64,000 nt of DNA from an uncultured Eubacteriales bacterium (GTDB taxonomy: Bacteria; Bacillota; Clostridia; Christensenellales; Aristaeellaceae). The notes below the pieces were generated by a model. That model searched no databases, was not told where the DNA came from, and saw nothing but the letters and a program-made list of their open reading frames with translations. Made by a program: the position numbers and the translations under genes. Location: NCBI GenBank assembly GCA_902799465.1, contig CADCAS010000001.1, forward strand, positions 80,055 through 144,054, read 5' to 3'. This document shows, piece after piece, positions 40,334-63,185 of the stretch; positions within the stretch are counted from its first letter, which is position 1, and each line of letters starts with the position of its first letter.

Positions 40334-41110
40334 GTGATTGTGGGCAGCACGGGCTTTTCTTTTGGCGGCGTGCACAGCCGGGACGACATGGGGCTGATCT
40401 ACGCGGAGAAGGACGGCCACGTCATGATCCCGGAGATCAAGCGCAACGCCTACAGCATCGCCGGCATGAGCGGCACGGTGCTGATGCCCGGCGAGGCCTG
40501 GCAGACGTTCTTTTTGGAGGGAACGCTCTACCCCGCGGAGGAGCCGCGCACGCTGGCGGACGCCCAGGCGCTGCTTCGGGACATCGTTGCCTGGCTGACC
40601 GCCGGGCGGCAGCGGCTGATCTTCGACTATGAGCCGGGGGTCTACTACCTGGCGGAGATCTCCACGGCCAGCAAGTACAGCCTGCGCAACTGGTTCGGCG
40701 GCGAGCTGCCGATCCGGTTCACGGTGCAGCCGTTCGCGTACAGCGTGGAGGAGCGATCGAGCACCGTGGAGACCGCCTCGAGCAGCGCCACGGTCCAGCT
40801 GAACGTCGAGACCGGCCAGAGGGCGCCGCTGAAGCTGACGATCGAAAACACCGGCACGGCAGCCATCACGCGGGTGACGATCCAGGGCATCACTCTGAAG
40901 AACATGAACCTCGCCCACGGGCAGACGCTGGTGATCGACTGCGAGCCGCCCATGGGGGCGACGGTCGGCAATGAGAGCGCCATGCAGTATGCCGCGGCCT
41001 TCGCGCCGGTCATGCTGGACAACGGCGTGAACAGGATCCCGGTATCGCTGTCCTACGGCGGCGGCACGGTGCGGGCGAGGATCACGGCTTCGGCGAGGGG
41101 GCGGTGGTAA
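40334..41110 (+). CDS. distal tail protein (Dit, siphovirus tail family)
   Basis: GTG start; FSFGGVHSRDDMGLIY...GTLYP...IRFTVQPFAYS pattern. Confidence 0.75.
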   Translation: MIVGSTGFSFGGVHSRDDMGLIYAEKDGHVMIPEIKRNAYSIAGMSGTVLMPGEAWQTFFLEGTLYPAEEPRTLADAQALLRDIVAWLTAGRQRLIFDYEPGVYYLAEISTASKYSLRNWFGGELPIRFTVQPFAYSVEERSSTVETASSSATVQLNVETGQRAPLKLTIENTGTAAITRVTIQGITLKNMNLAHGQTLVIDCEPPMGATVGNESAMQYAAAFAPVMLDNGVNRIPVSLSYGGGTVRARITASARGRW

Positions 41111-43285
41111 ATGGAGTATTTGAGCGTTTACGACCAGGACGGCACGATGCTAGCCGTGCTGGATCACGCGGACAAGATCGGCTACGTTCTCAAGCACAAC
41201 GACCTCTGGACGGGGTCGTTTTCGCTGCCCTCCGGAGATCCGGCGAACGCCTTTTGTCAGGCGCACAACCTGGTGCGACTGCCGGACGGGAGCCGGGACA
41301 CGGGCCTCTTCCGGATCGTCGGCATGCCCAGCGGCGAGGAGTCCGCGATGGGCGGCGTGCGCACCTACAACCTGGAACATGTGATGGCCACGCTGCTGGA
41401 CGACGTCCTCTTTGGGTATCACGAGGTGGGCGGCACCGGGGTCAATACCCGGCAGGTGATGGAGTACATCCTGGGAAAGCAGACAGTGCGGCGCTGGCAG
41501 CTGGGCGCGTGCGAGTTCAACGACTACTTCCAGTATCACTTTGAAAACGTGTCGCTGCTGTCGGCGCTGCTTTCATTGGGCGAGGTTTTGACGGAGGAAT
41601 ACACGTGGGACTTCGACACCGACACGACGCCCTGGACGGTGAACCTGCGGCGGGCCGACAGTGCGCCCGGCTGCGGCATCCACTACGGGCGGAATCTGGT
41701 GAGCATCACAAAGACCATGGACGCCTCCGCGCTGGTGACGCGGCTGTATCCGCTGGGATACGGCGAGGGCGTGAACCAGCTGACCATCCGGGACGCGAAC
41801 GGGGGTCTCCCCTACCTCGACGCCGACACCATCGCCACCTGGGGCGTGAAGTGCAGCGTCTGGACGGACACGAGGATCCAGGACGCTCAGACGCTGAAAG
41901 CCCGGGGCCTTCAGGTGCTGGACGGATACAAGAATCCCTACATCACCTATACCGCGAAGGCCATCGACCTGTATCTGATCACCGGCTACAGCTGGGACAA
42001 CTACATGCCCGGCAAGCTGGTCAAGGTGATGGACTCGGAGCACGGGATCGACTTCGACGCGCGGATCGTGGAGATCGGCAAGCGGGACGTGAACGGCGAT
42101 CCCGGCGACATCGAGATCACCATCGCCAACACGCCCAGGGACGCGGCGGATTCTATCAACACGCTGGCGGACCGCGTGGGCATCGGCGAGCTCTACAGCC
42201 AGGGCGCGACGAACCTGTTCGCCATCCCCTTCGCCGACAACGCGGACGAAAACCACCCGGCGAAATTCCGCGTTTACATCCCCGCGGGGATGGTGCGGAT
42301 CAACAAGATGCAGCTGACGTGGCAGCTCCAGCCCTTCCGGGCCTATTCCACCGGCGCGGCTGCCGGCGGCAGCACCACGAAGACCAGCAGCAGCGGCGGC
42401 GGCGGCGCGGTGACGACGCGCACGTCGGACGATGTGCAGCAGACCAGCGAATACGGGGGCAAGACGACCATCACCCAGCCGGAACGCGTGCTGACCGACG
42501 ACATCATCGCCGACCTGGGATGGACGACCGGTCCCTACAAAAACGGCCTGGGCGACCAGGAATACATGGGAAGCACCGACGGCACTGAGCTGACGACCTC
42601 CACGGGCGGCGCACACGCGCACCGGCTGCCGGATCACAGCCACGGCATGAGCCACCACCATCGGGTGGACGCCCACACCCATTCCGTCAACATCGACGCG
42701 GAGGCGGACTGGAATGTCAACATGGTCCATGTGGCGGGCTATACCGGCAACCCGAGCGGCGAGGTCAACACGGGACAGCCCAAGTATCAGGACGATACGA
42801 AGCCCAATACCGACCCGGTGACGGACGCCACGACCTATATGGATGATGGGCATACGCATGATGTGGTCAGGCATGCCCACGGCATGGACCATTTCCACTA
42901 CTTCAAGAGCCTCAAGATCCCGTCATTCGACATTGAGATACCGGACCACAGTCATGCCGTGAAGATACCCGGCCACAACCACACGGTGGACATCCAGCCG
43001 CACACCCACGACGTGACGCTGCCCGACCACGAGCACGGCATCGTGTACGGCATCTATGAAGGCGGCAGGGCCAGCAGCGTGACCATCAACGTGGACGGCG
43101 TGAGCGTTCCCGTCGGCAGCGGCGGCGAGATCGACGTGAGCGGCTACTTATCCAAGGACGACAACGGCAAGATCCGGCGCGGCGCGTGGCACGAGATCCA
43201 GATCGTGCCGGACAGCCTGACGCGCATCGAGGCCAACCTGACCGCGCAGGTTTTTGTGCAGTCGGTCGGCGGGGGCGACTATTGA
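41111..43285 (+). CDS. tail-associated protein (Tal / prophage-tail endopeptidase family) with a His-rich C-terminal region
   Basis: N-terminus MEYLSVYDQDGTMLAVLDHADKIGYVLKHNDLWTGSFSLP is typical of siphovirus Tal. The C-terminus carries at least 9 HxH motifs. Confidence 0.75.
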   Translation: MEYLSVYDQDGTMLAVLDHADKIGYVLKHNDLWTGSFSLPSGDPANAFCQAHNLVRLPDGSRDTGLFRIVGMPSGEESAMGGVRTYNLEHVMATLLDDVLFGYHEVGGTGVNTRQVMEYILGKQTVRRWQLGACEFNDYFQYHFENVSLLSALLSLGEVLTEEYTWDFDTDTTPWTVNLRRADSAPGCGIHYGRNLVSITKTMDASALVTRLYPLGYGEGVNQLTIRDANGGLPYLDADTIATWGVKCSVWTDTRIQDAQTLKARGLQVLDGYKNPYITYTAKAIDLYLITGYSWDNYMPGKLVKVMDSEHGIDFDARIVEIGKRDVNGDPGDIEITIANTPRDAADSINTLADRVGIGELYSQGATNLFAIPFADNADENHPAKFRVYIPAGMVRINKMQLTWQLQPFRAYSTGAAAGGSTTKTSSSGGGGAVTTRTSDDVQQTSEYGGKTTITQPERVLTDDIIADLGWTTGPYKNGLGDQEYMGSTDGTELTTSTGGAHAHRLPDHSHGMSHHHRVDAHTHSVNIDAEADWNVNMVHVAGYTGNPSGEVNTGQPKYQDDTKPNTDPVTDATTYMDDGHTHDVVRHAHGMDHFHYFKSLKIPSFDIEIPDHSHAVKIPGHNHTVDIQPHTHDVTLPDHEHGIVYGIYEGGRASSVTINVDGVSVPVGSGGEIDVSGYLSKDDNGKIRRGAWHEIQIVPDSLTRIEANLTAQVFVQSVGGGDY

Positions 43286-43306
43286 TTGAGAGGAGGACTA
43301 AAGAAC

Positions 43307-46300
43307 ATGGCAGACAATGAGAACAATGGCGTTCAGACTATACACGGTTTGAGCGTGGAGCAGAGCCTGCTGGGCGCCGTGAACGACGCGGCTACCCAGG
43401 AGCCCGACGAGGAATATGAGATCATCGCCGTGGAGGATCTGGAGCGGGTGAAGCTGGGCCGGCAGGGCGAGAACGAGACCCAGACCGTGCGCATCGACTG
43501 CAATGAATGGCTGGTGCAGCTCCAGGGGTGCACCTTCATGGTGGTGGCGCTGCGGCCCGGCGAGACGGAGCTGTACGTGCCGGACATCACGGTTTCCAAC
43601 GGACTGATCACCTGGCCCATCACAGCGCAGGACACCGCCTGCTCCGGCGCGGGCCGGGCGGAGGTGCGCGCGCTCAAGGGCGACGCGGTGAAGAAATCCA
43701 AGCTGTTCCGCACCTGGATCGAGCCCGCCCTGGAGGGCGCCATCGGCACGCCGGTGACCCCGCCCAACTGGGTAAAGGAGACGAAGGAAGCCCTCGACCG
43801 GGCCAACACCCTGATGGCGGACGCGCTGGCGGCTGCCAACGAGGCCAACGAAGCGGCGGAGAACCTGGACGACGAGGTGGCTGCCGCCAAGACCGACGCC
43901 CTGGACGCCATCGCGGCGGCAAAGACTGACGCGCAGGAAGCGGCGGACGCGACGCTTACGGACATCGCGGAGGCCCGCGACGCGGGCCTGGACGCCATTG
44001 ACGCGGCCCAGGCGGCGGCTGTGGCGGACGCTGCGGAGGCCATGAACACGGCGAAGGACGACGCTGTGGCGGCGGGAGAAGCGGCCCTGGAGGCCGCCAA
44101 GGTGGCGAAGCTGGAGGAAATCGCGGAAGCCAAGACCAACGCGGAGCAGATCGCGGCGGCGGCGGTGGAAATCGCCGAGGACGCCAACGCCAACGCCGTG
44201 CAGGCGCTGGAAAAGGCCACCAACGCCGAGAACGATTCCGCGACCTACGCGACGGACATTGACGAGCTGAAGTCTGGGATGCAGCGCTATAACCTGGAGA
44301 GCGGCAGCTACTTCGGCGGCGTATTCCTGGACGAGGACACCAACACGCTGTACTTCACCGACAAAAACGGCAGGGTCATTGCCGAGGTGGAGAACATCGG
44401 ACGCGGCGGCGGCGGCGGCGGTGGCGGCGACGACAGCGGCAGCAACAGCAAGATCCACATGGACAACATCAGCGGCTGGCAGTCCAAGACACTGGCGCGG
44501 AAGAAGGACGAGGCCGTCCCCAGCTGCCCGGTGACGCTGCAGTGGTCGTCCATTGAGAACGAGTTGCCGACCGGCAACGGCACGCTGCGGGTCATGGTCA
44601 ACGACAAGACCGAGGCCATGCTGGAGGTGCAGCAGGGCACTGTGGTGGTGGACGTAGCCGGGTATCTGAAGACCGGCTCCAACATGCTAGACTTCACGGT
44701 ATACGACATCTACGGCAAAAACCGCACCTGCCGCTGCTCGGTGGACGTCAAGGAGATGTACCTGGAGAGCACCCACGACAACACCCAGCCCCAGAAGGGC
44801 GCTTTTGCGTTCGCATACACGCCCTTCGGCAGCGTGCGCAAGCTCGTCCACTTCGAGATGGACGGCACGGAGCTGGGCACCGTGGAGACCTCCGTCAACG
44901 GACACCAGCAGAGCTACACCATCCCGAAGCAGACCCACGGGGCGCATGTGCTGCGCGTGTGGTTTGAGGCTGAGATCAACGGTCAGACGGTTCTGTCCAA
45001 TACGCTGTATTACGAGATCATCTGCATTGACCCGCTGAGCACCGCGCCGATCATCGTCTCCAACTTTGACCGCTCCACCGTGTCCCAGTATGAGACGCTG
45101 ACCATTGAATACAACGTCTATGACCCCATGCGCCTGGAAGCGCCGGTCACCATCGACGTGGACGGGACTCAGGTCGCGAGCCTGACCGCCAGCCGCGAGA
45201 CGCAGACCTTCACCTACCGGGTGAGCCGCGCCGGAGCGCTGGCCATCGCCATCAAGAGCGGCGAGACTACAAAGACCCTTGACCTGACGGTGACCGAGTC
45301 CGACGTGCACCCGGAGGCCGTGACCGACCAGCTGAGCCTGTACCTGGACGCCGCAGGCCGCAGCAATTCCGAAACCAACCCGGCAGTGTGGGAATACGGC
45401 AGTGGCGCGAGCAAGATCGCGGCGACGTTTACCGGCTACAACTGGACGCGGGACGGCTGGCTGCTGGATGAGAACGCCCTGACCTGCCTGCGCACGATGG
45501 GCGGCGGCAAGGTGACAATCCCCGCGCTGGTCTACGGCAGGGACTTCCGCTCCAGCGGCAAGACCATTGAAATTGAGTTCAAGAGCCACAACGTGCTGGA
45601 TTACGACAGCCCCATCATCAGCTGCATGAGCGGCAACAGGGGCTTTGAAATCTATGCCGACCACGCGGTATTCAAGAGCGCCCGCGCAGAGGTGAGCACC
45701 CGGTTCGCTACTGACAAGCGGATCCGGCTGACGCTGGCCGTGGAGCCTCAAAACGACTACCGGCTGGTATACCTGTACATCGACGGTATATATCAGAGCA
45801 TTTCCCAGTACTCCACCACCGACAGCTTCCAGCAGGCGGAGCCCGTGGGCATCACCGTGGGCGACAATGCCCGCTGCGGCGTGGACTTGTACAACGTTCG
45901 CGTGTATGACCGCTATCTGACCGGCGACGAGGTGCTCATGAACTACATCGCCGATCGGCAGGACGCCTTCGAGATGCTGGAGCTGTACCAGCGCAACGAC
46001 ATCTACGAAAACGGCCAGATCGCCATCAGCAGGCTGCCGAAAGACCTGCCCTACGCCGTTTTGACCGGCCCGGAGTCCCCGCAGTACAAGGGCGACAAAA
46101 AGACTGTGAGCATGGTCTACGACGAGCCCGCCAACAGCGCACGGCACCTGGTGGCCCAGGGCGTGGTCGTGAACGTGCAGGGCACCAGCTCCCAGTATTA
46201 CGCTGTCAAGAATCTGAAGATCACCTTCAAGGAAGGTGCGACGGTGAACGGGCGGCTGGTGATGGGCTTCACCATCCGGGACGGCAGCATCATGGTGGAC

Positions 46301-49300
46301 ACGTTTACACTGAAGGCGGACGTGGCCTCCTCGGAGAGCGCCAACAACATTGTGCTGGCGAAGCTGTTTGACGACCTGTCCCAGGAGCTGGGCATCCTGA
46401 CCCCGCCCCAGAAAAAGAACCGGGCCGTGCGGCAGGGCATGGACGGCTTCCCCTGTGCTGTGTTCTGGGATTATGGCGACGGCCCCGTGTTCATCGGCAA
46501 GTACAACTTCAACAACGACAAGGGTACCCCGGAAACCTTCGGCTTTGCGGATGGTGACGAGGTGTGGGACGTGCGCAACTTCGACAGCCAGCTTTCCAAG
46601 TTCCGCACGAACGTGTTCGGCGACAGCTGGACGGACGATTATGAGTCCATCTTCCCGGAGGACTACTTCGACAGCACCCGGCTGCAGGCCATGACGGACT
46701 TCATCTACGGCACCTGGCAGGAGAACGCCAGCGGTAACGCGCTGCCGGAGGCCGTGACCTATGATGGCGTGAGCTACGACCACGACACCGCCGCCTACCG
46801 CCTGGCGAAATTCAAGGCCGAGTACGGCGACTGGTATGACCTGGACAATGCGGCGTTTTTCTACGTGTTCACGCTGGTCATGCTGCTGGCGGACAACCGG
46901 CAGAAAAACGAGCACCTGGCCTGGTATGACGATATCAAAAGGTGGTGGGAGCTGCCCTACGACTTTGACACCGCGCTGGGCACCGACAACCTGGGCCGAC
47001 TGACCTTTGAATACTGGATGGAGGATATTGACCAGGTCGGCGGCAAGAACATCTTCAACGGCCAGGACAACGTGAAATGGCAGAACTACCGGCAGGCGTT
47101 CTGGGCTCGCTGCTGCGCTATGTATCAGCGGATGCGCTCTACCGGCAAGTTTTCGGCGGAGTACATCGCCACACTTATCGACGTCTGGCAGGGAAGCTGG
47201 CCGGAGGCCATGTGGAACGAGGATGGCGAGTACAAGTACACCAACCCGCTGCGCAGGGACGGCATCACCACCTATCTGTCCATGGCGCTGGGCAGCAAGA
47301 AAGGCCAGCGCTACGACTTCCTGGTGTGGCGGTTTGCCTACTGTGACAGCCTGTTTGACGCGGGTGACGCGCTCCAGACCATCATGTTCCGGCCCTACTT
47401 CCACATCACGGAGGCGCAGCGGGCCAGCGGCGACTACGACGTGACGGTGGAACTCTACAAAAAGGGCTACGTCAAGCTGCTGTGGGACGACACCGCCACG
47501 GGCGAGCGCCTGGTGGGCAACACGCTGACCTGCCAGTGCGAGAACCCCTACACGGACGCCAACCAGGCCGTGTGCAACCTGCACAGCGCCAAGATGATAA
47601 AGGACATCCGGGGCCTCGAAAAGCTGAACGTGCAGTATTTTGACGGCTCCAAGGCCGAGAACCTCCAGGCCATCCGACTGGGCAGCCAGGAGGAGGGCTA
47701 CGTCAACGAAATGACCACCGAGGTATCGGCGGGCGCGAACAGGAAGCTGACTCTGGTCGAGCTGACCGGGTGCGTGAACTTCGGCACCGGCGACCAGAAG
47801 GTGCTGACGCTGACCCAGTGCCCGAACCTGGAAAAGGTCTACGCGACCCGGACGGCGCTCCAGGGCGTTGACCTGCCCAACGGCGGCGTGCTGAACACGC
47901 TGAAGCTGCCTGCGACCACCAGCAGCCTGGTGATCCGCAACCAGCCCCGGCTGACGGACGCGAACCTGACGCTGGCGGGCTGGGACAACATCGACCAGCT
48001 CTGGCTTGAGAACATGAGCGGCCTGGACACCAAGGCCATATTCAACCGGGTGCCCGTGGGCACCGCCGTGCGCATTACGGGCTTCACCTGGGAGGTGACC
48101 GGCGCAGCGGAAATTGACACCATCATGGACAGGCTGGACACCATGCGCGGTATCAGCATCAACGGCCAGGGGCAGAGCGAGGAAGTGGACGACGCGCAGA
48201 TGAGCGGCACCATTCACGCCAGCGCCCTGCGCGGCGACGACATCGCCCGGTGGAAGGAGCGCTATCCCACCATCAACGTGACTGCCGACCACACCTCCTC
48301 CACCAAGACCTTCAAGAGCTGGGACGGTTCTACGACCGTGGGGACGGTGGAGTATGCCGACGGCAGGCCCGTGACGGCGCTGCCGAGTGTCCCGGCGAGG
48401 ACGGAGACCGCCCAGTACACCTTCACGGCGGTGGGCTGGAATACTGCGGAGGACGCCCAGACCGCGAACTTTGACGCGAGCACCGTCAACGACAGCGACC
48501 TGACCCTGTATGCCGCTTACAGCCGCACGGTGCGCAGTTATCCCATCACCTGGGCCAACGACGACAACAGCCAGCTGGACAGCGAGACCTACCAGTACGG
48601 CCAGCGGCCCAGCTATAAGAAGGGCACGCCTGTGAGCGCGGTGGACAGCAGCAGGCCGTTCGTGTCCTGGACGCCCACCATTGTGGATGTGACCGGGCCT
48701 GCGACCTACAAGGCGAGCTACATTCCGATTTACACCGCGACCTTCGTGAGGGCTGCGGAGGACGGCGGCGGGACGCTGGGAACCAAGAATTACCAGGACG
48801 GCCAGACGGTGACGGACGACGGCATCACGACGCCCACCAGCACCCGCGAGGGTTACACCTTCAGCGGGTGGACGCCTGCCCTGGGTGTGATCCACGCGAA
48901 CACGACCTACACGGCGAAGTTCAAAGCGCCCAGCGACGCCCCGACGGCGACCACTGCCGACGGCGCTTATGGCGTGGAGTGGGACTACAACGCCAGCGCC
49001 ACCACGCTGACCAGGAAGGGCCTTGCGGCGAGCTTCAGCAACCCGACGCCCGCCACGGCGGTGGACGGCAGCGGCTCCTCGCCCTTTGACACCATCGCGC
49101 CCTGGAAGGACATGAAGCGCTTCAACGTCGTGAGAGGCGCGGCGTCTGATTCGCAGAATCAGCCGTCCGCGGTTTCCGGCGACGCCGGAAACTCGGAATC
49201 CCAAGGGGATTCCGACCTTTGGACGCTGGTGCCCGACACCGACGCGAGCTTCGACGAGGCCGCCAACGACACGGTGGTGTACATCCCCGAGTTCTACTAC

Positions 49301-50095
49301 ACCGCCTACAAGGACACGACCAACAAGAAGTGGCTGTGGGCCATCAGCCCGACTCAGCTTCCGGGCTACAAGAAACACCCCGGCAGCGGCTGCTATGTGG
49401 GCCGCTTCCACACCGGCGGCGACAGCTCTGCGGTGTATTCCAAGGGCGGCGTGGCCCCGCTGGTGAGCACCACCCGCGCCAACTTCCGCACCTACAGCAA
49501 GGCCAAGGGCAACGGCTGGCACCAGATCGACCTGGCCACCTGGTCCGCCATCCAGCTGCTCTACCTGGTGGAGTTTGCCAACTGGCACAGCCAGGACCAG
49601 CTGGGCACCGGCCAGAATACCGGCAGCATCAAGGCCACCGGCGCGACCACCGGCGCAGTCTACCACACCCTCAAGCGCAGCGGCGCCAGCAACATGTACC
49701 GCTGGATCGAGAATCCGTTCAGCAATGTGCTGACGTGGGTGGACGGCTTTGTGGCCAACAACCGGGCGGCCTATGTCAGCACCGACATGGCCAGCTACGG
49801 CGAGAGCACCAGCGGCATGGAGGCCGCGGGCATCACGCTGCCCAGCAGCGAGATGATCACCGGCCTGGGCTACAGCGAGAAATGCGCCTGGGCGTTTATC
49901 CCGGACACCGCAAGCGGCGGCAGCGCGACCACTTATGTCACTGACCGCGTGTACTCCGACGCCGGCGTGCGGCTGGTGGCCGTTGGCGGCAACTACTACT
50001 CCAACGACCACTGTGGCGTGTTCTACTTCGGCGCGGATTGGAGCGTCGCCGGAGCCAGCGCCAGCCTGGGCTCCCGTCTCCTTTATAAGCCCTGA
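43307..50095 (+). CDS. giant tail fibre / receptor-binding protein (2262 aa), DGR target with a C-type-lectin-fold C-terminus
   Basis: GAGGAGGA RBS. Ala-rich coiled coil, poly-Gly hinge, LamG-like, LRR-like and Listeria-Bacteroides-type repeats. C-terminal ...GGNYYSNDHCGVFYFGADW... carries the VR. Confidence 0.88.
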   Translation: MADNENNGVQTIHGLSVEQSLLGAVNDAATQEPDEEYEIIAVEDLERVKLGRQGENETQTVRIDCNEWLVQLQGCTFMVVALRPGETELYVPDITVSNGLITWPITAQDTACSGAGRAEVRALKGDAVKKSKLFRTWIEPALEGAIGTPVTPPNWVKETKEALDRANTLMADALAAANEANEAAENLDDEVAAAKTDALDAIAAAKTDAQEAADATLTDIAEARDAGLDAIDAAQAAAVADAAEAMNTAKDDAVAAGEAALEAAKVAKLEEIAEAKTNAEQIAAAAVEIAEDANANAVQALEKATNAENDSATYATDIDELKSGMQRYNLESGSYFGGVFLDEDTNTLYFTDKNGRVIAEVENIGRGGGGGGGGDDSGSNSKIHMDNISGWQSKTLARKKDEAVPSCPVTLQWSSIENELPTGNGTLRVMVNDKTEAMLEVQQGTVVVDVAGYLKTGSNMLDFTVYDIYGKNRTCRCSVDVKEMYLESTHDNTQPQKGAFAFAYTPFGSVRKLVHFEMDGTELGTVETSVNGHQQSYTIPKQTHGAHVLRVWFEAEINGQTVLSNTLYYEIICIDPLSTAPIIVSNFDRSTVSQYETLTIEYNVYDPMRLEAPVTIDVDGTQVASLTASRETQTFTYRVSRAGALAIAIKSGETTKTLDLTVTESDVHPEAVTDQLSLYLDAAGRSNSETNPAVWEYGSGASKIAATFTGYNWTRDGWLLDENALTCLRTMGGGKVTIPALVYGRDFRSSGKTIEIEFKSHNVLDYDSPIISCMSGNRGFEIYADHAVFKSARAEVSTRFATDKRIRLTLAVEPQNDYRLVYLYIDGIYQSISQYSTTDSFQQAEPVGITVGDNARCGVDLYNVRVYDRYLTGDEVLMNYIADRQDAFEMLELYQRNDIYENGQIAISRLPKDLPYAVLTGPESPQYKGDKKTVSMVYDEPANSARHLVAQGVVVNVQGTSSQYYAVKNLKITFKEGATVNGRLVMGFTIRDGSIMVDTFTLKADVASSESANNIVLAKLFDDLSQELGILTPPQKKNRAVRQGMDGFPCAVFWDYGDGPVFIGKYNFNNDKGTPETFGFADGDEVWDVRNFDSQLSKFRTNVFGDSWTDDYESIFPEDYFDSTRLQAMTDFIYGTWQENASGNALPEAVTYDGVSYDHDTAAYRLAKFKAEYGDWYDLDNAAFFYVFTLVMLLADNRQKNEHLAWYDDIKRWWELPYDFDTALGTDNLGRLTFEYWMEDIDQVGGKNIFNGQDNVKWQNYRQAFWARCCAMYQRMRSTGKFSAEYIATLIDVWQGSWPEAMWNEDGEYKYTNPLRRDGITTYLSMALGSKKGQRYDFLVWRFAYCDSLFDAGDALQTIMFRPYFHITEAQRASGDYDVTVELYKKGYVKLLWDDTATGERLVGNTLTCQCENPYTDANQAVCNLHSAKMIKDIRGLEKLNVQYFDGSKAENLQAIRLGSQEEGYVNEMTTEVSAGANRKLTLVELTGCVNFGTGDQKVLTLTQCPNLEKVYATRTALQGVDLPNGGVLNTLKLPATTSSLVIRNQPRLTDANLTLAGWDNIDQLWLENMSGLDTKAIFNRVPVGTAVRITGFTWEVTGAAEIDTIMDRLDTMRGISINGQGQSEEVDDAQMSGTIHASALRGDDIARWKERYPTINVTADHTSSTKTFKSWDGSTTVGTVEYADGRPVTALPSVPARTETAQYTFTAVGWNTAEDAQTANFDASTVNDSDLTLYAAYSRTVRSYPITWANDDNSQLDSETYQYGQRPSYKKGTPVSAVDSSRPFVSWTPTIVDVTGPATYKASYIPIYTATFVRAAEDGGGTLGTKNYQDGQTVTDDGITTPTSTREGYTFSGWTPALGVIHANTTYTAKFKAPSDAPTATTADGAYGVEWDYNASATTLTRKGLAASFSNPTPATAVDGSGSSPFDTIAPWKDMKRFNVVRGAASDSQNQPSAVSGDAGNSESQGDSDLWTLVPDTDASFDEAANDTVVYIPEFYYTAYKDTTNKKWLWAISPTQLPGYKKHPGSGCYVGRFHTGGDSSAVYSKGGVAPLVSTTRANFRTYSKAKGNGWHQIDLATWSAIQLLYLVEFANWHSQDQLGTGQNTGSIKATGATTGAVYHTLKRSGASNMYRWIENPFSNVLTWVDGFVANNRAAYVSTDMASYGESTSGMEAAGITLPSSEMITGLGYSEKCAWAFIPDTASGGSATTYVTDRVYSDAGVRLVAVGGNYYSNDHCGVFYFGADWSVAGASASLGSRLLYKP
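49944..50083 (+). repeat. DGR variable repeat (VR)
   Basis: 140-nt match to 50214-50353 with 17 mismatches, all opposite TR adenines. Confidence 0.9.
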
Positions 50096-50102
50096 CGGGG
50101 GA

Positions 50103-50122
50103 CCGGGGGCCGCAGCCCCCGG
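50103..50122 (+). promoter_or_regulatory. GC hairpin 8 nt downstream of the VR gene stop (DGR target-recognition-type element)
   Basis: CCGGGGGC-CGCA-GCCCCCGG: 8-bp GC stem, 4-nt loop. Confidence 0.6.
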
Positions 50123-50213
50123 AAACGTGGCCCAGCTACAGAGAGGATGATTGCTATGAAGTAGCAGCTTAATAAAAGGGATTACCCATGCAGTGGGCCA
50201 GGCTATGCGTTTC

Positions 50214-50353
50214 ACCGCGTGAACTCCAACACCGGCGTGCAGCTGGTGGCCGTTGGCGGCAACTACAACTCCAACGACAACTATGGCGTGTTCTACTTCA
50301 ACGCGAATTGGAACGTCACCGAAACCAACGCCAACCTGGGCTCCCGTCACCTT
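50214..50353 (+). repeat. DGR template repeat (TR), noncoding
   Basis: A-rich (AAC-codon-rich in VR register) invariant copy. Bracketed by the inverted repeat ATTACCCATGCA (50181-92) / TGCATGGGTAAT (50378-89). Confidence 0.9.
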
Positions 50354-50380
50354 GTTTAATGATCCATGTTTTAGCATTGC

Positions 50381-50590
50381 ATGGGTAATTCCGCAGCACT
50401 CGCTGAAAATTCTACCGACAGGACGGGGTTTAGTAGGACGGGGCCGGACTTTGAGTCTGGCCCCGTTTCGGACGACCCCGAGGTAAACAAGGAGGCATTA
50501 GAGCTGGCGCTGAACGGCATCGAGACGGACGACGGGCAGCTGGAGAGAGCAGAGGAACAATTCAGGAAAGACGTGGAAGGATGGTGCTAA
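50381..50590 (+). CDS. doubtful small acidic ORF
   Basis: The only in-frame ATG sits inside the TR-flanking inverted repeat. The first half has non-coding-like codon usage and crosses a hairpin (50441-50465). The second half looks coding and follows an AAGGAGG at 50489. Confidence 0.25.
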   Translation: MGNSAALAENSTDRTGFSRTGPDFESGPVSDDPEVNKEALELALNGIETDDGQLERAEEQFRKDVEGWC

Positions 50591-51630
50591 GGATGAAAGC
50601 GGTGGAAAGACTGATCGCAACGGCTGAAGCGGAGCTCGGCTACCTGGAGAAAAAGAGCAATAAGGACCTGGACAGCAAGACGGCCAACGCCGGCAGCGCG
50701 AATTATACGAAGTATAACCGCGACCTGAAGAACTGGACCGGCGTGGGCAGCCTGAGCGCCCAGTGGTGCCAGGCGTTTGTGGACTGGTTATTTATTATGG
50801 CCTTCGGCGTGGAAGTTGCGAAGAAGCTGCTGGGCAAATTCACCAACTACACACCCACCGGGTCCGACGCCTTCAAGAAGCGGGACGCCTACATCAAGCG
50901 GGGCAAGGGAAAGCCGAAGCGCGGCGACGTGATTTATTTTTACTCCAGCGCGAAGGGCAGGATCGGCCACGTGGGCATCGTGACGGATGTCACCAGCTCC
51001 AAGGTGTACACCATCGAAGGCAACACCAGCGGGGCCAGCAGCCTGGTGACGAACGGCGGCGGCGTCAAAAAGAAGAGTTACAGCCTGTCCAGCACCTACA
51101 TCGACGGCTATGGCAGCGTGGATTATTCCGTGGTGGACGGTCTGGACTTCAAGGCCCCGGAAGTGGTGGCCGTGAAGCTGGGCGACCGGCTGCTGAAGAA
51201 CGGCAGCGAGGGCGACGACGTGAAAGAGCTCCAGGCGGCGCTGATCGGCCTGGGCTTCAGCTGCGGCAGCTATGGCGCGGACGGCGAATATGGGGATTGC
51301 ACTGAGATGGCCGTACGGGCCTTCCAGGCGGCCCACGGCTGCGAAGTCGATGGAGAATATGGCCCGGAGACGCACGCGGCCCTGGAGGCCGCCGTGGACG
51401 CCCAGAGCGCCGGAGCGGACCCGGAGGCCGCCCAGTATGTGCAAATTGAAAAGGGTAAAAAGTGCTACATAAGGACCGGCCCCGGCACGGAGAACAAGGC
51501 CCTGGGCGTGGCGCACAGCCTGGACAAGCTGCAATACGCGGGCGAGACCGCGGAAAACGGCTGGCACCGGGTCAAGTACGGGAACGGGCTGGCCTGGGTA
51601 TCCGGCAAGTACGGGAAGCTGGTGGCGTGA
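50581..51630 (+). CDS. endolysin (CHAP/NlpC-P60-type amidase + PG_binding_1 + SH3-like)
   Basis: QWCQAFVDW (catalytic Cys context), GHVGIV...IEGNT, LKNGSEGDDVKELQAAL, and C-terminal SH3-like GWHRVKYGNGLAWV. Confidence 0.88.
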   Translation: MVLRMKAVERLIATAEAELGYLEKKSNKDLDSKTANAGSANYTKYNRDLKNWTGVGSLSAQWCQAFVDWLFIMAFGVEVAKKLLGKFTNYTPTGSDAFKKRDAYIKRGKGKPKRGDVIYFYSSAKGRIGHVGIVTDVTSSKVYTIEGNTSGASSLVTNGGGVKKKSYSLSSTYIDGYGSVDYSVVDGLDFKAPEVVAVKLGDRLLKNGSEGDDVKELQAALIGLGFSCGSYGADGEYGDCTEMAVRAFQAAHGCEVDGEYGPETHAALEAAVDAQSAGADPEAAQYVQIEKGKKCYIRTGPGTENKALGVAHSLDKLQYAGETAENGWHRVKYGNGLAWVSGKYGKLVA

Positions 51631-52342: not shown

Positions 52343-55300
52343 GTGCCGAACAACAGCGAGGGCATCGGAACGAAAGTAAGCGTTAAGGGCGATAAAGAGT
52401 ATAAAAGCGCATTACAGCAAATCAGCAGGCAGCTGACCGTTCTTAATACCGACATGAAGGCCAGCCAATCCGCTTTTGGTGCCCAGGCTGAGACCATGGA
52501 CGGTATGCACGACCGCCTGGAAAAACTCAATGAAATATATGAGGTCCAGGCGAAAAAGGTGGAGCTGATCCGGGAACAGCTGGAGAAGGCCAAGGCGGAA
52601 TACGGCGAGAACAGCAAGCAGGCGGATGATCTGCAAATTGCCCTGAACAAGGCCACGGCGCAGATGAACGGGACGGCGAACCAGATCACCACCACGGAAC
52701 AGGGTCTGAAGACGCTGGCGGACGCCCAGCATCTGGCCGGGGACGCGACGGACGCTTCCTCGATGACCTTGAAAGAGGCGGAGCAGGCACTGAAGAACGC
52801 CGGCGAGGGCGCTGAGGAGATGGCCGGTTCTGTGGGCGACGCCGGGGACGCCGCGGGCGAGGTCGGCGACGCCGCAGAGGACGCCAGCGGCGGCGTGGGC
52901 AGCTTTGCAGAGTCGCTGCTGGAGGCGGCAGGGGCCGTGGGCGGCGGCTTCCTGGACGGCGTGCAGGGGCTTCTGGGCGCGCTGGGCAGCATTGGCGGGG
53001 CGTGCGTGGAGGCGCTGGGCGAGGCGTTTGACCTGGCAAAGGACGCGGGCAAGTATGCCGACGATCTGCTGACGCTGTCGAGCCAGGTGGGCGTGGACAC
53101 AGACAAGCTCCAGCAGTGGCAGTATGCCAGCAACTTCATCGACACGTCGGTGGAAACGATCACCGGAAGCATGACGAAGCTGACGAAGAAGATGGACTCC
53201 GCGCAGGAGGAGGAGAAGAAGAACGCGGAGAAGTGGCAGGAGCACCTGGACAAGATCGCGCGGGGCGAGAAGGACACCTGGAGCGAGGTCACCACGGCCC
53301 GGGACGCCTTTGTGAAGCTGGGTGTTTCCTGGAAGGACTACAACGGCAACCTGCGCGACAACGAGGAGGTCTTCATGGACCTCATCGACGCGCTGGGGAA
53401 GGTCGAGAATCCGGTGGAGCGCGACGCGCTGGCCATGGAGCTGTTCGGCAAGAGCGCCAAGGAGCTCAATCCGCTGATCGAGGCCGGCAGCCGCGCTTGG
53501 CGGGAGATGGGCCAGGAAGCGGAGGCCATGGGGACGGTGTTCTCCGAGGGGAACCTCGAGATCATGGGCGGCTTCGACGACACCATGCAGATGTTCAACG
53601 CCACGGCGGACGCCATGAAGAAGACCATCGGGCTCAAGATGATCCCGATGTTCGAGCCGCTGGTGCAGGCCGCGGGCCAGAGCATGGGCAGGCTGTCGAA
53701 GGCGCTCCAGGACGGGGCGAGCCCGACGGAGCTGGCCGGTGTGCTGGACGAGGTCGCGAACAGCCTGATCGACGAGCTGACGGTGACGTTCGTGCGGCTG
53801 GACGAGATGGTGCCGGAGGCGGTGAAGGTCATTTCGCAGGTGATCAGCCATGTGGCCGAAGCGCTGCCGGAGCTGGCGCGGGTGGCGCTGCCGGGGGCGA
53901 TGAAGCTGTTGCAGGCGGTGCTGGATGGGCTGTTGCAGATCACCGGGCCGCTGGCCACGCTGGCCACGGAGCTGGTGACCACGGTGGCGGGGTTTCTGAT
54001 CGACAACCTGCCGGACATCGTGGACGCGGGCACGGATCTGTTGCTGGGGCTGGTGGACGGTATCGTGGACGCGCTTCCGGAGCTGATCCCGGCGGCGGTC
54101 GAGATGGTGGTGAAGCTGGCGGAAGGGCTGATTCAGGCCATCCCGAAGTTAGTGGAAAAGCTGCCGGAGATCGTTGATGCCATCTGGGACGGTCTGGTGA
54201 ACACGGACTGGCCGGGACTGGGCAGTGAGGTGCTGAGCTCGATCTGGGGCACGCTGGGAGCGCTGGGCGACGACCTGCTGGGGATCTTCACGGACGCCAT
54301 CACGAACATCACCGGTCTGGACTTCGCCTCCATCGGCAGCGGCATCCAGAGTGCCATCGAGGGCATTCTGGGGTCGGACGGCAGCTTCCTGTCGGGGCTG
54401 TTTTCCGACGCGCACGACGACATCGAGGGAATCGACTGGGACAAGCTGGGCGAGAACGTCGGGAAGGCCGGTTCGGCGCTGGTGAATATGACCGGCGAGG
54501 CGCTGGCGGGCGGCTTTGAGGCCGGTTATGCGCTGATCGAGAATATCGAATGGGGCAAGCTGGGTGAGACGGTCGGCAACATCGCCAACGGGCTGGTGAA
54601 TCTGACCGGCGAGGTGGCTGCGGCGGGCTTCGAGGCAGCGCACGGGCTGATCGAGGGGCTGGACTGGGAAGGCCTGGGCAAGACCGTGGGCGACGTGGGC
54701 AACGGGTTGGTGAACCTGACCGGCGAGGTCGCCGCGCAGGGGTTCCAGAACGCGCACGATCTGATCGAAAATATCGACTGGAGCGGGCTGACGGACACGC
54801 TGGCGGCGGTGCCGAACGGGCTGATCGAGCTGTCCGGCGACCTGATCGCGCAGGGTTTCCGGAATGGGCACGACCTGATCGAGAAGATCAACTGGGGCGG
54901 TCTGACGGACACGCTGGCAGCGGTGCCCAACGGTCTGATCGAGCTGAGCGGCGAGACGCTCTCCGGGGCGTTCTCGGCGGCCTATGACATCATCAGCGAC
55001 ATTCCCTGGGACGAGCTGGGGAACGAAGTCGCGGACGGCCTGGGGCGCGCCTGGGGCATCGTCAGCGGCGTTGGCGACGTGGCGCTGGGCTTGGGCGAGG
55101 GCGCGGTGATGGCCGGTCAGCAGGGCGTCGGGGCGCTGAAGGACTGGATCGCTTCATGGCGGGACGACGGCGAGGTGGAGAGCGAGGCCACGGCCGTCGG
55201 CGCGCAGGTGATCACCGACGTGGGCACCGGCGTAACCAACGAGGTGCCGCAGCTGGAGACCACCGCGCAGGAGGCCGCGGACGCGCTGCTGACGGCGATC

Positions 55301-55963
55301 CGGAATGTACTGACAGAGTCGACGGTGGAGCAGATCGGCAAGGATCTGGACGAGGACGTCTGGACCGGCGTGGTGCTGGGCGAGGACGAGCTCTTGCAGG
55401 TCGTGGCCGGGGTTGCCGGGGATTCCTTTGACGAGCTCAGGGACGCCGTGGAGGACGCCGGGTTTGCCGAGATCGGCCGGCAGATGGACAACGGGATTGT
55501 TTCAGGCATTTACGAGAACAGCCGGTACATCAAGGAGGCGGCCAGGGCGGCGGCGCAGGCGGCTTACAATGCCGCGAAGAGCGAGCTGGGGATCGCCAGC
55601 CCGTCCAAGAAGGGCGGATGGTTGGGCGAGATGTTCGACCTGGGCTTCGCCGGTGGATTGATCGACAACGCCGATGAGATCGAGAGCGCCATGGGGTATC
55701 TCAATGAGCTGACCACTGCGGAGGCTGAGCCGGTGATGGTCGGAGGGCCGATGCAGCGAGGGTTTGCTGGATTTGAGATCGATTACGGGCAGATGCGGGA
55801 GGCTTTCATTGAGGCCATCGAGGAGACCGGTGTGGGCAATATGGTGATGCAGATGGATAAGGAAGTCGTCGGCGAAACGCTGGAGCCGGTCACCAGCAGG
55901 GCCACCCGGCAGCGGCAGCAGAGGTATGTCAAGGGCAGGACGGCAAGGCTGGTGATAGGATGA
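52343..55963 (+). CDS. tail tape-measure protein (1206 aa), in a non-canonical position
   Basis: GTG start behind AAAGGGGGG. N-terminal coiled coil. TMP core LQQWQYASNFIDTS..., ALAMELFGKSAKELNPLIEAG. 38-aa tandem repeats. Confidence 0.85.
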   Translation: MPNNSEGIGTKVSVKGDKEYKSALQQISRQLTVLNTDMKASQSAFGAQAETMDGMHDRLEKLNEIYEVQAKKVELIREQLEKAKAEYGENSKQADDLQIALNKATAQMNGTANQITTTEQGLKTLADAQHLAGDATDASSMTLKEAEQALKNAGEGAEEMAGSVGDAGDAAGEVGDAAEDASGGVGSFAESLLEAAGAVGGGFLDGVQGLLGALGSIGGACVEALGEAFDLAKDAGKYADDLLTLSSQVGVDTDKLQQWQYASNFIDTSVETITGSMTKLTKKMDSAQEEEKKNAEKWQEHLDKIARGEKDTWSEVTTARDAFVKLGVSWKDYNGNLRDNEEVFMDLIDALGKVENPVERDALAMELFGKSAKELNPLIEAGSRAWREMGQEAEAMGTVFSEGNLEIMGGFDDTMQMFNATADAMKKTIGLKMIPMFEPLVQAAGQSMGRLSKALQDGASPTELAGVLDEVANSLIDELTVTFVRLDEMVPEAVKVISQVISHVAEALPELARVALPGAMKLLQAVLDGLLQITGPLATLATELVTTVAGFLIDNLPDIVDAGTDLLLGLVDGIVDALPELIPAAVEMVVKLAEGLIQAIPKLVEKLPEIVDAIWDGLVNTDWPGLGSEVLSSIWGTLGALGDDLLGIFTDAITNITGLDFASIGSGIQSAIEGILGSDGSFLSGLFSDAHDDIEGIDWDKLGENVGKAGSALVNMTGEALAGGFEAGYALIENIEWGKLGETVGNIANGLVNLTGEVAAAGFEAAHGLIEGLDWEGLGKTVGDVGNGLVNLTGEVAAQGFQNAHDLIENIDWSGLTDTLAAVPNGLIELSGDLIAQGFRNGHDLIEKINWGGLTDTLAAVPNGLIELSGETLSGAFSAAYDIISDIPWDELGNEVADGLGRAWGIVSGVGDVALGLGEGAVMAGQQGVGALKDWIASWRDDGEVESEATAVGAQVITDVGTGVTNEVPQLETTAQEAADALLTAIRNVLTESTVEQIGKDLDEDVWTGVVLGEDELLQVVAGVAGDSFDELRDAVEDAGFAEIGRQMDNGIVSGIYENSRYIKEAARAAAQAAYNAAKSELGIASPSKKGGWLGEMFDLGFAGGLIDNADEIESAMGYLNELTTAEAEPVMVGGPMQRGFAGFEIDYGQMREAFIEAIEETGVGNMVMQMDKEVVGETLEPVTSRATRQRQQRYVKGRTARLVIG
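54420..55045 (+). repeat. about six tandem 114-bp (38-aa) repeats inside the tape-measure gene
   Basis: Unit I(D/E)W(D/G/E/S)xLGxxVGxxxNGLVNLTGExxAxGFxxxHxLIE, repeated with decreasing identity. Confidence 0.8.
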
Positions 55964-56951: not shown

Positions 56952-56994
56952 TTCGGGACCAAAAGGTCGCAGGTTCAAATCCTGTCACCTCGAC
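56952..56994 (+). repeat. attR of the prophage, doubling as the left att of the tandem element (tRNA-Pro 3' remnant)
   Basis: Exact 43-bp copy of 17565-17607. Confidence 0.92.
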
Positions 56995-57145
56995 CACCCC
57001 AAAAAGCCTTGAAAACACAGCGTTTTCGGGCTTTTTTCTTATTGCTGAAAGCACCAGTTTCCCTAAAATTGCCCTAACCAGCATTGAAATGAGCCTCAGC
57101 GTGATTAATACAGGGTGCTACATATGGAAGATTTCACATCAAATA

Positions 57146-57212
57146 CAGGTTTTACAGGAATATGCAGGTTTTACAGGATATACAAGTTTTCCATATATAC
57201 AGGGTTTACAAA
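57146..57212 (+). promoter_or_regulatory. direct repeats CAGGTTTTACAGGA (candidate arm-type sites of the second integrase)
   Basis: Perfect copies at 57146 and 57165; degenerate copies at about 57182 and 57200. Confidence 0.45.
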
Positions 57213-57257
57213 CAGATAATACAAATCCTGCAGGCGACGCCTACAGGATGCGTTTAT

Positions 57258-58397
57258 CTACTCTTGTTTTTCATGTCGCTGTTGCCTTCGTTCGGCAGCT
57301 TGACGTTTCATCTCATCCGTGCTGGCGGTGTACACGTCCAGTGTAATTCCCGTGGTACTGTGCCCGGCCATAGCCGCTATGGTCTTGATGTCGGTTCCGG
57401 CCTTTTCCTCGTTGGTGATGAACGTTTTCCGCAGCGTGTGGAGCGTGACCTCTGGATGGCCGAGGCGGTTACGGATTCGGACAAAGGCGTTTTCAATCGT
57501 CCTGTGCGGCATCGGCGACCCGTCCTCGCGGGTGAACACCAACCCGTTGTCATTCTGCCATTGATTCCCGGCGCGGAGCCTGTTTTCATTCTGGCGGCGT
57601 TTCTCGTCCCTCAGGAAGGCGAGCACGTAGGGCGGGACGTAGATACTCCGTGCCTGTTTGGTTTTGGTTCGATCCTTGACCTCGCGCACGCTTCCTTTTG
57701 TGCGCTTGCGTTCAAGCTGGCCTGATATGAGTATCTCGCCGGATTTCAGATTGATATTCTTCCACAAGAAGCCTAACACTTCACTAATTCGTGCTCCCGT
57801 ATGTAGCGCAAGCAAGAATATATTCTTGTAGGGGGAGGCGTTAAACTCTTTCTCAAACGCCGTTTGTAAATCAGATTCCATGGCAACCGGCGCTTTACGA
57901 ATGATGTGTGGCAAATCCAGATCCGAGGCAGGGTTTTTCGGTATGAGTTCCATTTTGACGGCATCTTGAAGCGCTGCCGAAAGGACACCAACGATATTAT
58001 GGATATATTTCGGGGATTTATCCAGACCATTCACGAACTCTTGACACTGAGCGCGACGAAGTTCCTGCAGTCTGGCTTTACCTAACCTCGGTTTGATGTA
58101 TAACCGACAAATTGATTCATAGTTGGTATAAGTACCAGGTTCTATATTCCGTTTTTTTTCTAACCATTCATCTACCCATTGAGACAGGTTCTTTTTTTGA
58201 GGCGAGACATATTGCCCGGTAGTTATCTTTGCTTGCACATCACGCAGTTTCCTCACACATTCAGATTCGCTGGTCGCGCTGACGGATTTTTGCATGTGGG
58301 TGAAGGGGTCGGTGTACCGCCCTTCATAGTAAACACGTCCCTTGACATACTTCTTCCTGACAGATCCAAGGCCATTACTATTCTTTTTCCCTGTCAT
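57258..58397 (-). CDS. int: tyrosine recombinase / integrase (second element)
   Basis: 379 aa from MTGKKNSNGLGSVRKKY...; catalytic region HTLRKTFIT...AGHSTTGITLDVY. Confidence 0.9.
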   Translation of the reverse strand: MTGKKNSNGLGSVRKKYVKGRVYYEGRYTDPFTHMQKSVSATSESECVRKLRDVQAKITTGQYVSPQKKNLSQWVDEWLEKKRNIEPGTYTNYESICRLYIKPRLGKARLQELRRAQCQEFVNGLDKSPKYIHNIVGVLSAALQDAVKMELIPKNPASDLDLPHIIRKAPVAMESDLQTAFEKEFNASPYKNIFLLALHTGARISEVLGFLWKNINLKSGEILISGQLERKRTKGSVREVKDRTKTKQARSIYVPPYVLAFLRDEKRRQNENRLRAGNQWQNDNGLVFTREDGSPMPHRTIENAFVRIRNRLGHPEVTLHTLRKTFITNEEKAGTDIKTIAAMAGHSTTGITLDVYTASTDEMKRQAAERRQQRHEKQE

Positions 58398-58881
58398 GCG
58401 GATCACCCATTTCATCAGCATCAAAAAAAGATGTCCTGTTCCTAAGGATAGCGAATAAATCATCACGTGACATAACGCCATCTTTCACAGCATCAGAGAG
58501 CTTATCAAAATCCTTGAAAAAACTAACAATAGGAAATGATGCAGTAGACAGCGAAAACTCATTATCTGAAACGCAGATTTTAAAGCTATTTTTCCCGGCT
58601 TTGATTTCTGCGAGCTGTGCAAGTATGCTGCAAATAACACTGTACTTTCCAGTGCCAAGCGGAAACAGGTGATTTATGAAATCGTCTTCGCCAAGAAGCC
58701 ACCATACAGGAACACCGAGAATTCTCGCATACTTCACTACCTCATTTATTCGTGGGTTTTTTTTGTCGTTGATATAAGAACTCAACGTTCCTGGTGCAAT
58801 CTGTAAATCTTCCGCAAGCTCTGCCTGCGTGATGCCTTTAGTGGTAATGATAGTCCGCAATCTTTCTGCAAATTCCTTCAT
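58378..58881 (-). CDS. XRE-family repressor
   Basis: HTH LRTIITTKGITQAELAEDLQIAPGTLSSYINDKK; GGAGGTG RBS. Confidence 0.85.
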   Translation of the reverse strand: MKEFAERLRTIITTKGITQAELAEDLQIAPGTLSSYINDKKNPRINEVVKYARILGVPVWWLLGEDDFINHLFPLGTGKYSVICSILAQLAEIKAGKNSFKICVSDNEFSLSTASFPIVSFFKDFDKLSDAVKDGVMSRDDLFAILRNRTSFFDADEMGDPHDREKE

Positions 58882-58921
58882 ATAGGGCACCTCCAACTTT
58901 AATTATAACGAAACATGAATA

Positions 58922-58980
58922 AATTGTCAAGCGCAAAAGAAATTTTCTTTCTTGACAATTCTTTTCGTGTATGCTATAGT
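58922..58980 (+). promoter_or_regulatory. rightward promoter with a flanking 10-bp inverted repeat (operator candidate)
   Basis: TTGACA(58952)-17 nt-TATAGT(58975). AATTGTCAAG (58922-31) / CTTGACAATT (58951-60) overlaps the -35. Confidence 0.6.
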
Positions 58981-63172: not shown

Positions 63173-63185
63173 TGGAGGTGACCAT

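Follow-up and report, generated by a model that had tools for sequence, protein, structure and literature searches.

What is the state of a diversity-generating retroelement (DGR) when its template and its target are both in place and the reverse transcriptase (RT) that should connect them is missing? The question is raised by a 64,000-nt stretch of an uncultured Eubacteriales genome (contig CADCAS010000001.1 of assembly GCA_902799465.1), hereafter the window, in which a prophage carries a giant tail-fibre gene whose 3′ end, the variable repeat (VR), recurs a short distance downstream as a non-coding template repeat (TR). A first-pass annotation, made from the sequence alone, recognised a DGR in this repeat pair and compared it to that of Bordetella phage BPP-1. 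The element is probably a DGR of a temperate siphophage that has recently lost its RT gene by deletion, leaving the receptor-binding tip of the fibre frozen. This reading builds on direct observations: the adenine-only substitution pattern, the identity of the TR in phages whose VRs vary, the fold of the target domain, the RNA motifs, and the presence of the same deletion in several assemblies.

The VR (49944–50083, plus strand) and the TR (50214–50353, plus strand) align over 140 nt at a constant offset of 270 nt with 17 mismatches. Every mismatch falls on an adenine of the downstream copy, which is replaced in the gene by G (13 cases), T (3) or C (1); the 106 C, G and T positions of the TR match the gene copy throughout, and the chance that 17 mismatches would all land on the 34 adenines is P = 7.5e-13 (hypergeometric). 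The machine comparison thus reproduces the earlier hand alignment down to the count of 17 changed adenines among 34, and mismatches at non-adenine TR positions, which had been named as the observation that would tell against a DGR, number 0 of 106. Similarity between the repeats collapses right outside 49944 and 50083(+4). Read in the frame of the gene, the TR is as rich in AAC as had been claimed (10 AAC codons and one AAT), codon positions 1 and 2 hold 33 of its 34 adenines, and all 17 differences are non-synonymous. The VR ends 12 nt before the stop codon of the fibre gene, and the TR begins 118 nt past that stop; both this spacing and the GC-rich block CTGGGCTCCCGTC near the end of the VR are as originally described. 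The attribution of all 17 mismatches to adenine mutagenesis stands for 16 of them. The last one, T 50079 in the VR against A 50349 in the TR, is an unvarying T/A difference, present in each of the eight relatives that have this mismatch, and, on this comparison, is therefore counted as a fixed difference between the initiation of mutagenic homing (IMH) site and its TR counterpart (IMH*), not as a product of random adenine mutagenesis; 16 mutagenic differences remain.

The adenine-only pattern acquires a direction when related loci are compared. These loci and assemblies are designated here by L-numbers, and the closest of them come from cattle-rumen metagenomes and from ‘uncultured Clostridiales’ RUG metagenome-assembled genomes; a blastn search of the GenBank phage collection found no relatives, and exact-pattern scans of IMG/VR for the TR end and for the deletion junction described below returned no matches. 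The TR of the window is identical at 140/140 positions to the TRs of L008 and L013 and at 139/140 to those of L012 and L022. The gene copies of L008, L013 and L012 differ from the window VR at 17–20 sites, located at TR-adenine positions only. Across the four lineages (window, L008, L013 and L012), VR variation touches 32 of the 34 TR adenines and 0 of the 106 non-adenine positions, the population-level pattern for which the first-pass annotation had proposed a test. The VRs of the window and L022 differ at 21 sites, 20 of which are TR adenines; the remaining one is a marker. L022 has a non-adenine change in its TR, C117G, and the same G is found in its VR, whereas L012 has G at position 117 of the TR and still C in the VR. 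Judged from these sequences, the marker shows directional copying from TR to VR. Natural flow of information from TR to VR, with diversification, is thereby observed at the level of lineages: the TR is shared, VR variation is confined to adenines, and G117 has been copied. Together with the cis elements considered below, the adenine-only pattern and the shared TR with differently diversified VRs in related phages uphold the identification of the repeats as VR and TR. The window VR can be read as a record of past mutagenic retrohoming, not as a sign of retrohoming that is demonstrably ongoing.

The target of this mutagenesis is a tail-fibre gene (43286–50095, plus strand) that comes after Dit (40334–41110) and Tal (41111–43285), neighbours supported by a Prophage_tail Pfam hit and a Dit PHROG hit. 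Its product has 2262 aa, the length first reported, when counted from the first ATG (43307), and 2269 aa if translation starts at TTG 43286. The middle part of the fibre matches phage PHROGs, and its C-terminal module matches phrog_5302 ‘tail protein’. The VR codes for the final ~47 residues of this 369-aa receptor-binding module (48986–50092, plus strand). A Pfam search with the last 299 aa gave no hit at E<=10, and so no FGE-sulfatase (PF03781) match, and a search with the last 499 aa gave only weak InlB-repeat (Flg_new) hits in the N-terminal part. Since Pfam thus left these 299 aa unassigned, structure prediction was needed to establish the fold. An AlphaFold2 model of the last 369 aa, built from 105 homologues, has a mean predicted local distance difference test score (pLDDT) of 92.9, and Foldseek against the PDB ranks TaqVP (5vf4) first (E=4.7e-11), with further matches to FGEs (~1e-4), Mtd (1yu1/1yu4) and TvpA (2y3c, 2e-2). 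The C-type-lectin (CLec)/FGE fold suggested in the first reading is thus borne out by the model. The VR accordingly sits at the 3′ end of a target gene whose product is predicted to end in a CLec fold, and, as in TaqVP, TvpA and FGE, the variable residues belong to the C-terminal part of that fold. The structural matches share only 8–17% sequence identity with the module, and its likeness to FGE-type folds, as modelled, is structural only. Unlike these proteins, the window domain is a phage fibre tip: its matches in BFVD are many ‘tail collar fiber’ proteins of gut phages, the nearest predicted structures, with TM-scores up to 0.84. The module family has >770 homologues, and its column entropy peaks at the VR codons.

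The DNA around the VR end has the layout of a phage DGR target site. The IMH-like 3′ end of the VR (50066–50083, plus strand) consists of the GC-rich block CTGGGCTCCCGTC (50066–50078) and the fixed T at 50079, with A 50349 marking the IMH*-like counterpart in the TR. A GC-rich hairpin or cruciform, CCGGGGGC-CGCA-GCCCCCGG (50103–50122), starts 19 nt past the end of the TR/VR homology; it has an 8-bp stem, a 4-nt loop and no U-tract. Phage DGRs possess a conserved target-recognition hairpin/cruciform with a GRNA loop, which is needed in BPP-1 (PMC3240598); the window has the same succession of a GC-rich IMH that differs from IMH* and a GC hairpin, while its loop, CGCA, departs from the GRNA consensus. 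Every DGR-bearing relative keeps the hairpin, L001 and L014 by way of a compensatory C-G>T-A change, and L009, a locus without TR and RT, lacks it.

The TR itself is bracketed by a long-range stem of 13 bp, formed by a 5′ arm at 50180–50192 and a 3′ arm at 50378–50390 (both plus strand). Pairing is maintained across three sequence versions, with compensatory changes in L001/L014 (CCCACGC/GCGTGGG) and in L010 (CCCGCGCA/TGCGCGGG), and with a G·U pair in L013. The stem was checked by direct duplex folding; RNAalifold on seven loci missed it, MAFFT having misaligned the 3′ arm of L010. The stem is followed by a structured spacer RNA, the RT-18 motif (Rfam RF03021; 50394–50494, plus strand), which scores 64.7 bits against a gathering score of 41.3, covers model positions 1–84 of 84 and has an internal hairpin with compensatory changes among relatives. 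RT-1 to RT-19 were defined as structured RNAs adjoining RT genes (Weinberg et al., 2017; PMC5737381); RT-10, the TR–RT spacer of BPP-1, was the only one of these motifs that the 2017 study assigned to a DGR, and others were speculated to serve DGRs (PMC5737381). RT-18 lies directly 5′ of the RT gene or its start in L008, L001, L010 and L014. In the window, no RT gene follows the motif, the gene having been deleted there. A scan for sigma-70 promoters around the TR found none; since the intervening hairpin has no U-tract, transcription of the fibre gene may simply run on and yield the template RNA.

No DGR-clade RT is encoded with the TR in the 64-kb window or in the att-bounded prophage. A search of all six frames of the window for YxDD and [ILVM]GxxxSQ motifs gave chance matches only (in Tal, in tape-measure ORFs, in the integrase gene and in a DUF5067 protein), tblastn of the window gave nothing below E=0.2 for any of three DGR RTs or for a candidate Avd from L002, and all open reading frames (ORFs) of the prophage longer than 250 aa have another, non-RT assignment. 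Comparison with the relatives reveals where the gene had been: the RT ORF of seven relatives sits at a position now deleted in the window. The window and L008 are co-linear and ~94% identical from the end of the fibre gene through the VR, the hairpin, the TR, RT-18 and the ribosome-binding site (RBS) of the RT gene to position 50502. At the junction 50502/50503, the window jumps from L008 position 11432 to 12569, and the missing 1136 nt (L008 11433–12568) begin 2 nt ahead of the ATG of the RT ORF and end ~7 codons short of its stop. To the left, the orphan RBS AAGGAGG (50489–50495, plus strand) persists within a 22-nt block, CCGAGGTAAACAAGGAGGCATT, identical to a block 8–10 nt upstream of the RT ATG in L001 and L008. 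To the right, the last ~7 codons of the RT ORF (AGAERH) remain at 50503–50523 (plus strand; aligned to L008 12569–12589), with the stop TGA changed to CGA. By this alignment, the RT ORF is deleted almost exactly, with both edges recognisable. Four other assemblies, L018–L021 (ERZ28614727, ERZ919313, ERZ27280616 and Logan ERR3201388), have the identical junction and the identical VR, and the deletion is therefore no accident of assembly. The working, BPP-1-like element that the first-pass annotation implied is thus not supported: a deletion of ~1.14 kb has removed the RT, and no avd was found either.

The search for avd covered a subset of the small prophage ORFs, among which there was no 23S_rRNA_IVP/Avd-type Pfam hit; the VR–TR gap (118 nt) leaves no room for an avd gene, and neither does that of the relatives. 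The Avd accessory protein is frequent in DGRs and not universal among them. Past the junction, the window runs on into the remnant of a small ORF and then into the endolysin gene. This remnant, the 3′ part of the ORF (50503–50590, plus strand), has lost the start codon and the first ~11 codons and is fused to the upstream frame (ORF 50381–50590). In relatives the small ORF is intact and encodes a conserved 40-aa protein (MALDI..GIET..GQLE..EGWC; ~12533–12655 in L008, 7112–7234 in L001); in L001 and L008 it overlaps the 3′ end of the RT gene in another frame and ends at the endolysin start codon. Identity to L008 is ~91–94% over the CLec module, the TR and the spacer (49226–50502) and ~77% in other tail and lysis genes, and the right boundary of high identity coincides with the deletion junction. 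From this distribution of identity, it appears that phages exchange the DGR module as one block. Loss of the RT by recombination with a DGR-free phage was considered and is unlikely, as the RBS and the last codons of the RT gene are still present.

The enzyme that the window lacks is represented in seven relatives (L001, L008, L010, L011, L013, L014 and L016) by a 384-aa ORF between RT-18 and the endolysin gene (11435–12589 in L008, 6013–7167 in L001). Its best match in the PDB is the 328-aa ‘Reverse transcriptase’ of 8ub7–8ube (E=1.8e-14, residues 4–297), and motif 4 and the catalytic box align between the two; going by protein length, we take chain 8ub7_A to be the BPP-1 DGR RT (bRT). The ORF product matches phrog_1423 ‘Reverse transcriptase’ at 9.5e-93 and the group II/retron/DRT models of NCBIfam weakly, and Pfam gives no RVT_1 hit. 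All seven copies have RNMDD in place of YxDD and IGF(Y/F)xxQWLAN in place of IGxxxSQ. The case points to a clade of DGR RTs that escapes detection by Pfam RVT_1 and carries RNMDD instead of YxDD; RT-anchored DGR finders that rely on Pfam could miss this whole family.

Assembled, these pieces would make up one DGR, with a target end (VR, IMH-like block and hairpin) and a template RNA gene (the stem-bracketed TR, then RT-18), that would diversify the CLec tip of the 2262-aa fibre. In the intact element, as found in the relatives, the downstream RT would copy the TR–spacer RNA into cDNA, misreading adenines, and the cDNA would then replace the VR; up to ~19 codons, mostly AAC, could be rewritten in this way, and the rewritten codons would alter receptor specificity. 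In the window, the ~1.14-kb deletion has taken the RT ORF and spared its RBS, its ~7 final codons and every cis element of RNA and DNA. The VR’s 16 adenine substitutions would date from retrohoming before the loss, a relict reading adopted because the RT ORF is deleted in this prophage, and the tip is now most likely fixed.

Mechanism and ancestry place the window element among the BPP-1-type phage DGRs that act on the CLec tip of a tail fibre; the DGR in the window is not complete. As in BPP-1 (mtd VR – avd – TR – spacer RNA – brt), a CLec tail-fibre gene carries the VR at its 3′ end with a non-coding TR nearby, the TR>VR differences are adenine-only and concentrated in AAC codons, a GC-rich block closes the homology and is followed by an 8-bp GC hairpin with a 4-nt loop, and the RT of the relatives is closest to chain 8ub7_A. 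Unlike BPP-1, the window has its RT gene deleted and no avd in the VR–TR gap or elsewhere among the prophage ORFs scanned, its spacer RNA is RT-18 instead of RT-10, its hairpin loop is CGCA instead of GRNA, and its target protein is about six times as long as Mtd; the RT of the relatives has RNMDD and IGFYxxQ where BPP-1 has YMDD and IGxxxSQ. The DGRs of gut Firmicutes and Bacteroides prophages (Faecalibacterium prophages, PMC11792537; hankyphage) also target a distal tail fibre beside the lysis genes of a temperate phage of anaerobic gut hosts, the window’s being a gut or rumen Clostridia host, but these have been described with an RT. The literature searched for RT-less or orphan DGR cassettes with an intact TR and spacer RNA describes none; the ‘partial DGRs’ of DGRscan are fragmented contigs. 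The system is well known in kind; the window and its relatives contribute a clean deletion of the RT, repeated losses of this gene, a DGR setting for RT-18 and a clade of RTs whose catalytic box is unusual.

Further, independent losses of the RT, each with its own junctions, are found in L022, L015, L017 and L009. In L022 (~795–815), the deletion starts just past the RT ATG, extends over the rest of the small ORF and has a CATG microhomology at its junction; this locus retains an intact TR and RT-18, and its VR is not the same as that of the window. In L015 (~8060–8136), on a contig with low coverage and other oddities, RT codons 1 to ~320 are gone and the left end lies 14 nt upstream of that in the window. 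In L017 (~2925–2945), the deletion extends from ~nt 48 of the TR to within ~10 nt of the right end of the deletion in the window, and in L009 (1550–2225) reverse-strand ORFs replace the TR and the RT. Three of the four deletions (window, L022 and L015) have left ends at most 20 nt from the RT start and spare the RNA. This clustering could reflect either a hot spot beside the GC-rich RT-18 hairpin or selection.

We infer that the element, still active shortly before the RT gene was deleted, is inactive at present. The VRs are identical in the five RT-less assemblies (the window and L018–L021). L018 is set apart from the window chiefly by a frameshifting loss of 28 nt from the fibre gene and by its number of tape-measure repeats, which suggests, at the sequence level, that decay of the RT-less prophage has begun in at least one host lineage. 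The L018 deletion, equivalent to window positions 47123–47150, splits the fibre gene into ORFs of 1369 and 903 aa; the tape-measure protein of L018 is longer than that of the window (1244 aa vs 1206 aa). An invariant VR combined with the absence of an RT had been put forward as grounds for rejecting a DGR altogether. That combination does occur in part, since there is no RT in the window and the VR is invariant in near-clonal RT-less copies, but among RT-bearing relatives with a shared TR the VR varies, and does so at TR adenines only.

Several observations weigh against the view of a dead element. The RT-less copies are nearly clonal, so that their identical VRs are weak evidence of inactivity. 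That three of four RT deletions spare the RNA could mean that it retains a use. Neither the TR nor the bracketing stem nor RT-18 has decayed (0–1 differences from RT-bearing relatives), and there is no non-adenine TR/VR mismatch; therefore, either the deletion is recent or the RNA is still selected, and the undecayed RNA fits a very recent deletion and continued selection equally well. Finally, the inspection covered 64 kb of a contig of ~150 kb, and an RT elsewhere in the genome is possible.

The main alternative, conceivable if unlikely, is that the window contains a non-autonomous yet active DGR served in trans by the RT of a DGR on the host chromosome, of a co-resident prophage or of a co-infecting relative. 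The cis elements are all intact and match those of RT-bearing relatives exactly, three lineages have independent deletions that end close to the RT start and leave the TR and RT-18 alone, one and the same rumen metagenome can contain several closely related RT-bearing phages (Ga0326512 yielded L011, L013 and L014), and a plasmid-borne avd-TR-brt of BPP-1 acts in trans on its target (PMC5758913; constructs in PMC3240598). Yet the window, including the visible part of the neighbouring integrative element, contains no RT, the VR is the same in all five RT-less assemblies, and the frameshift in the fibre gene of L018 suggests decay, not use. To our knowledge, no natural DGR with its TR RNA separated from the RT gene has been reported; surveys start from the RT. 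A broader version of the idea, that RT-less cassettes as a class are non-autonomous DGRs which keep their template/spacer RNA gene and target and borrow the RT of a co-resident or co-infecting relative, with the clustering of deletion ends 3′ of RT-18 reflecting selection for the RNA, is speculative and, in our estimate, doubtful. The reliance of short interspersed nuclear elements (SINEs) on long interspersed nuclear elements (LINEs) offers a likeness for such a cassette.

It is very improbable that the real phage has an RT and that the contig collapsed or joined two variants during assembly or binning. The source is a metagenome-assembled genome, and identity to L008 falls from ~94% left of the junction to ~77–86% right of it, as a chimeric join might give. 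Against this stand a junction that is not at a repeat and that recurs base for base in four other assemblies from different pipelines, the last RT codons that persist to its right, and the different RT deletions of other relatives. The weakest alternative, a tandem segmental duplication of the gene’s 3′ end whose copies drifted apart through ordinary mutation or a deaminase-like A>G process, could account for the 13 A>G transitions among the 17 changes, but it has next to no chance of being right given that the changes are confined to the adenines of one copy and include A>T and A>C, that across lineages the coding copy varies at those adenines only and the non-coding copy not at all (a comparison which rules out an ordinary tandem segmental duplication), and that the relatives have a DGR-type RT, an RT-associated RNA motif and a CLec target fold.

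With a recent RT deletion as the preferred reading, the locus has consequences for how DGRs are sought and annotated. Surveys anchored on the RT gene leave cassettes without an RT unseen, and a tail fibre can carry a DGR-written receptor-binding tip without an RT in the phage. An adenine-only repeat pair proves DGR ancestry, not DGR activity. RT-18, an orphan Rfam motif, now has a place in a DGR, with a TR on one side and a DGR-type RT on the other. The RT has been lost at least five separate times within a single lineage of rumen phages, and three of the losses left the template RNA untouched; the resulting natural series of intact, RT-deleted, TR-truncated and fully replaced loci lends itself to asking how and why phages switch off hypermutation, and it bears on whether template RNAs can be served in trans.

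The element belongs to a 39.4-kb prophage (17565–56994) integrated in tRNA-Pro(CGG). Its ends are marked by attL (17565–17607, plus strand), the 43-nt 3′ end of the tRNA gene, and attR (56952–56994, plus strand), an exact direct repeat of it. The prophage begins with a tyrosine integrase gene (17767–19125), regulators, a primase-like protein and SSB, and continues with HNH, TerS, TerL, portal, ClpP protease, capsid, head–tail connectors, tail tube, chaperones, Dit and Tal. The giant fibre and the repeat copy are followed by the endolysin, the right neighbour of the cassette (50581–51630, plus strand), with CHAP, PG_binding_1 and SH3_3 domain hits, and then by a holin, the tape-measure gene and a MazG-like gene. 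The order is unusual in that the tape-measure gene (52343–55963, strong PHROG hits) is found near the right-hand end of the prophage, past endolysin and holin, instead of between the tail chaperones (39653–40269) and Dit. The same order is found in RT-bearing L008 (14668–18237) and L014 (4857–7619) and is therefore a feature of the lineage, not a local rearrangement; the idea that it marks a rearrangement which removed the RT was rejected on the same grounds. Between the terminase and portal genes, on the minus strand (33454–34017), there is a gene for a BrnT-type ribonuclease toxin (Pfam 2.8e-30) with a small upstream partner ORF, which together look like a toxin–antitoxin pair.

Directly after attR, a second integrative element of ~50% GC occupies 56995–64000 and has a stand-alone copy in L026. 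Its genes include an integrase (57258–58481, minus strand), helix-turn-helix (HTH) regulators, a primase zinc-finger protein and an AAA_25 protein; its visible part has no RT, and in L026 a tape-measure-like gene of 873 aa comes next. Host DNA makes up the left part of the window, with queA, glgA, an SNF2 helicase, an acyl-CoA synthetase and spoVAD, a gene content that indicates a spore-forming Firmicute host of ~62% GC. This part also contains an ORF of 731 aa (10337–12532) with a strong coding signal (GC content at third codon positions, GC3, of 0.86) and no Pfam hit.

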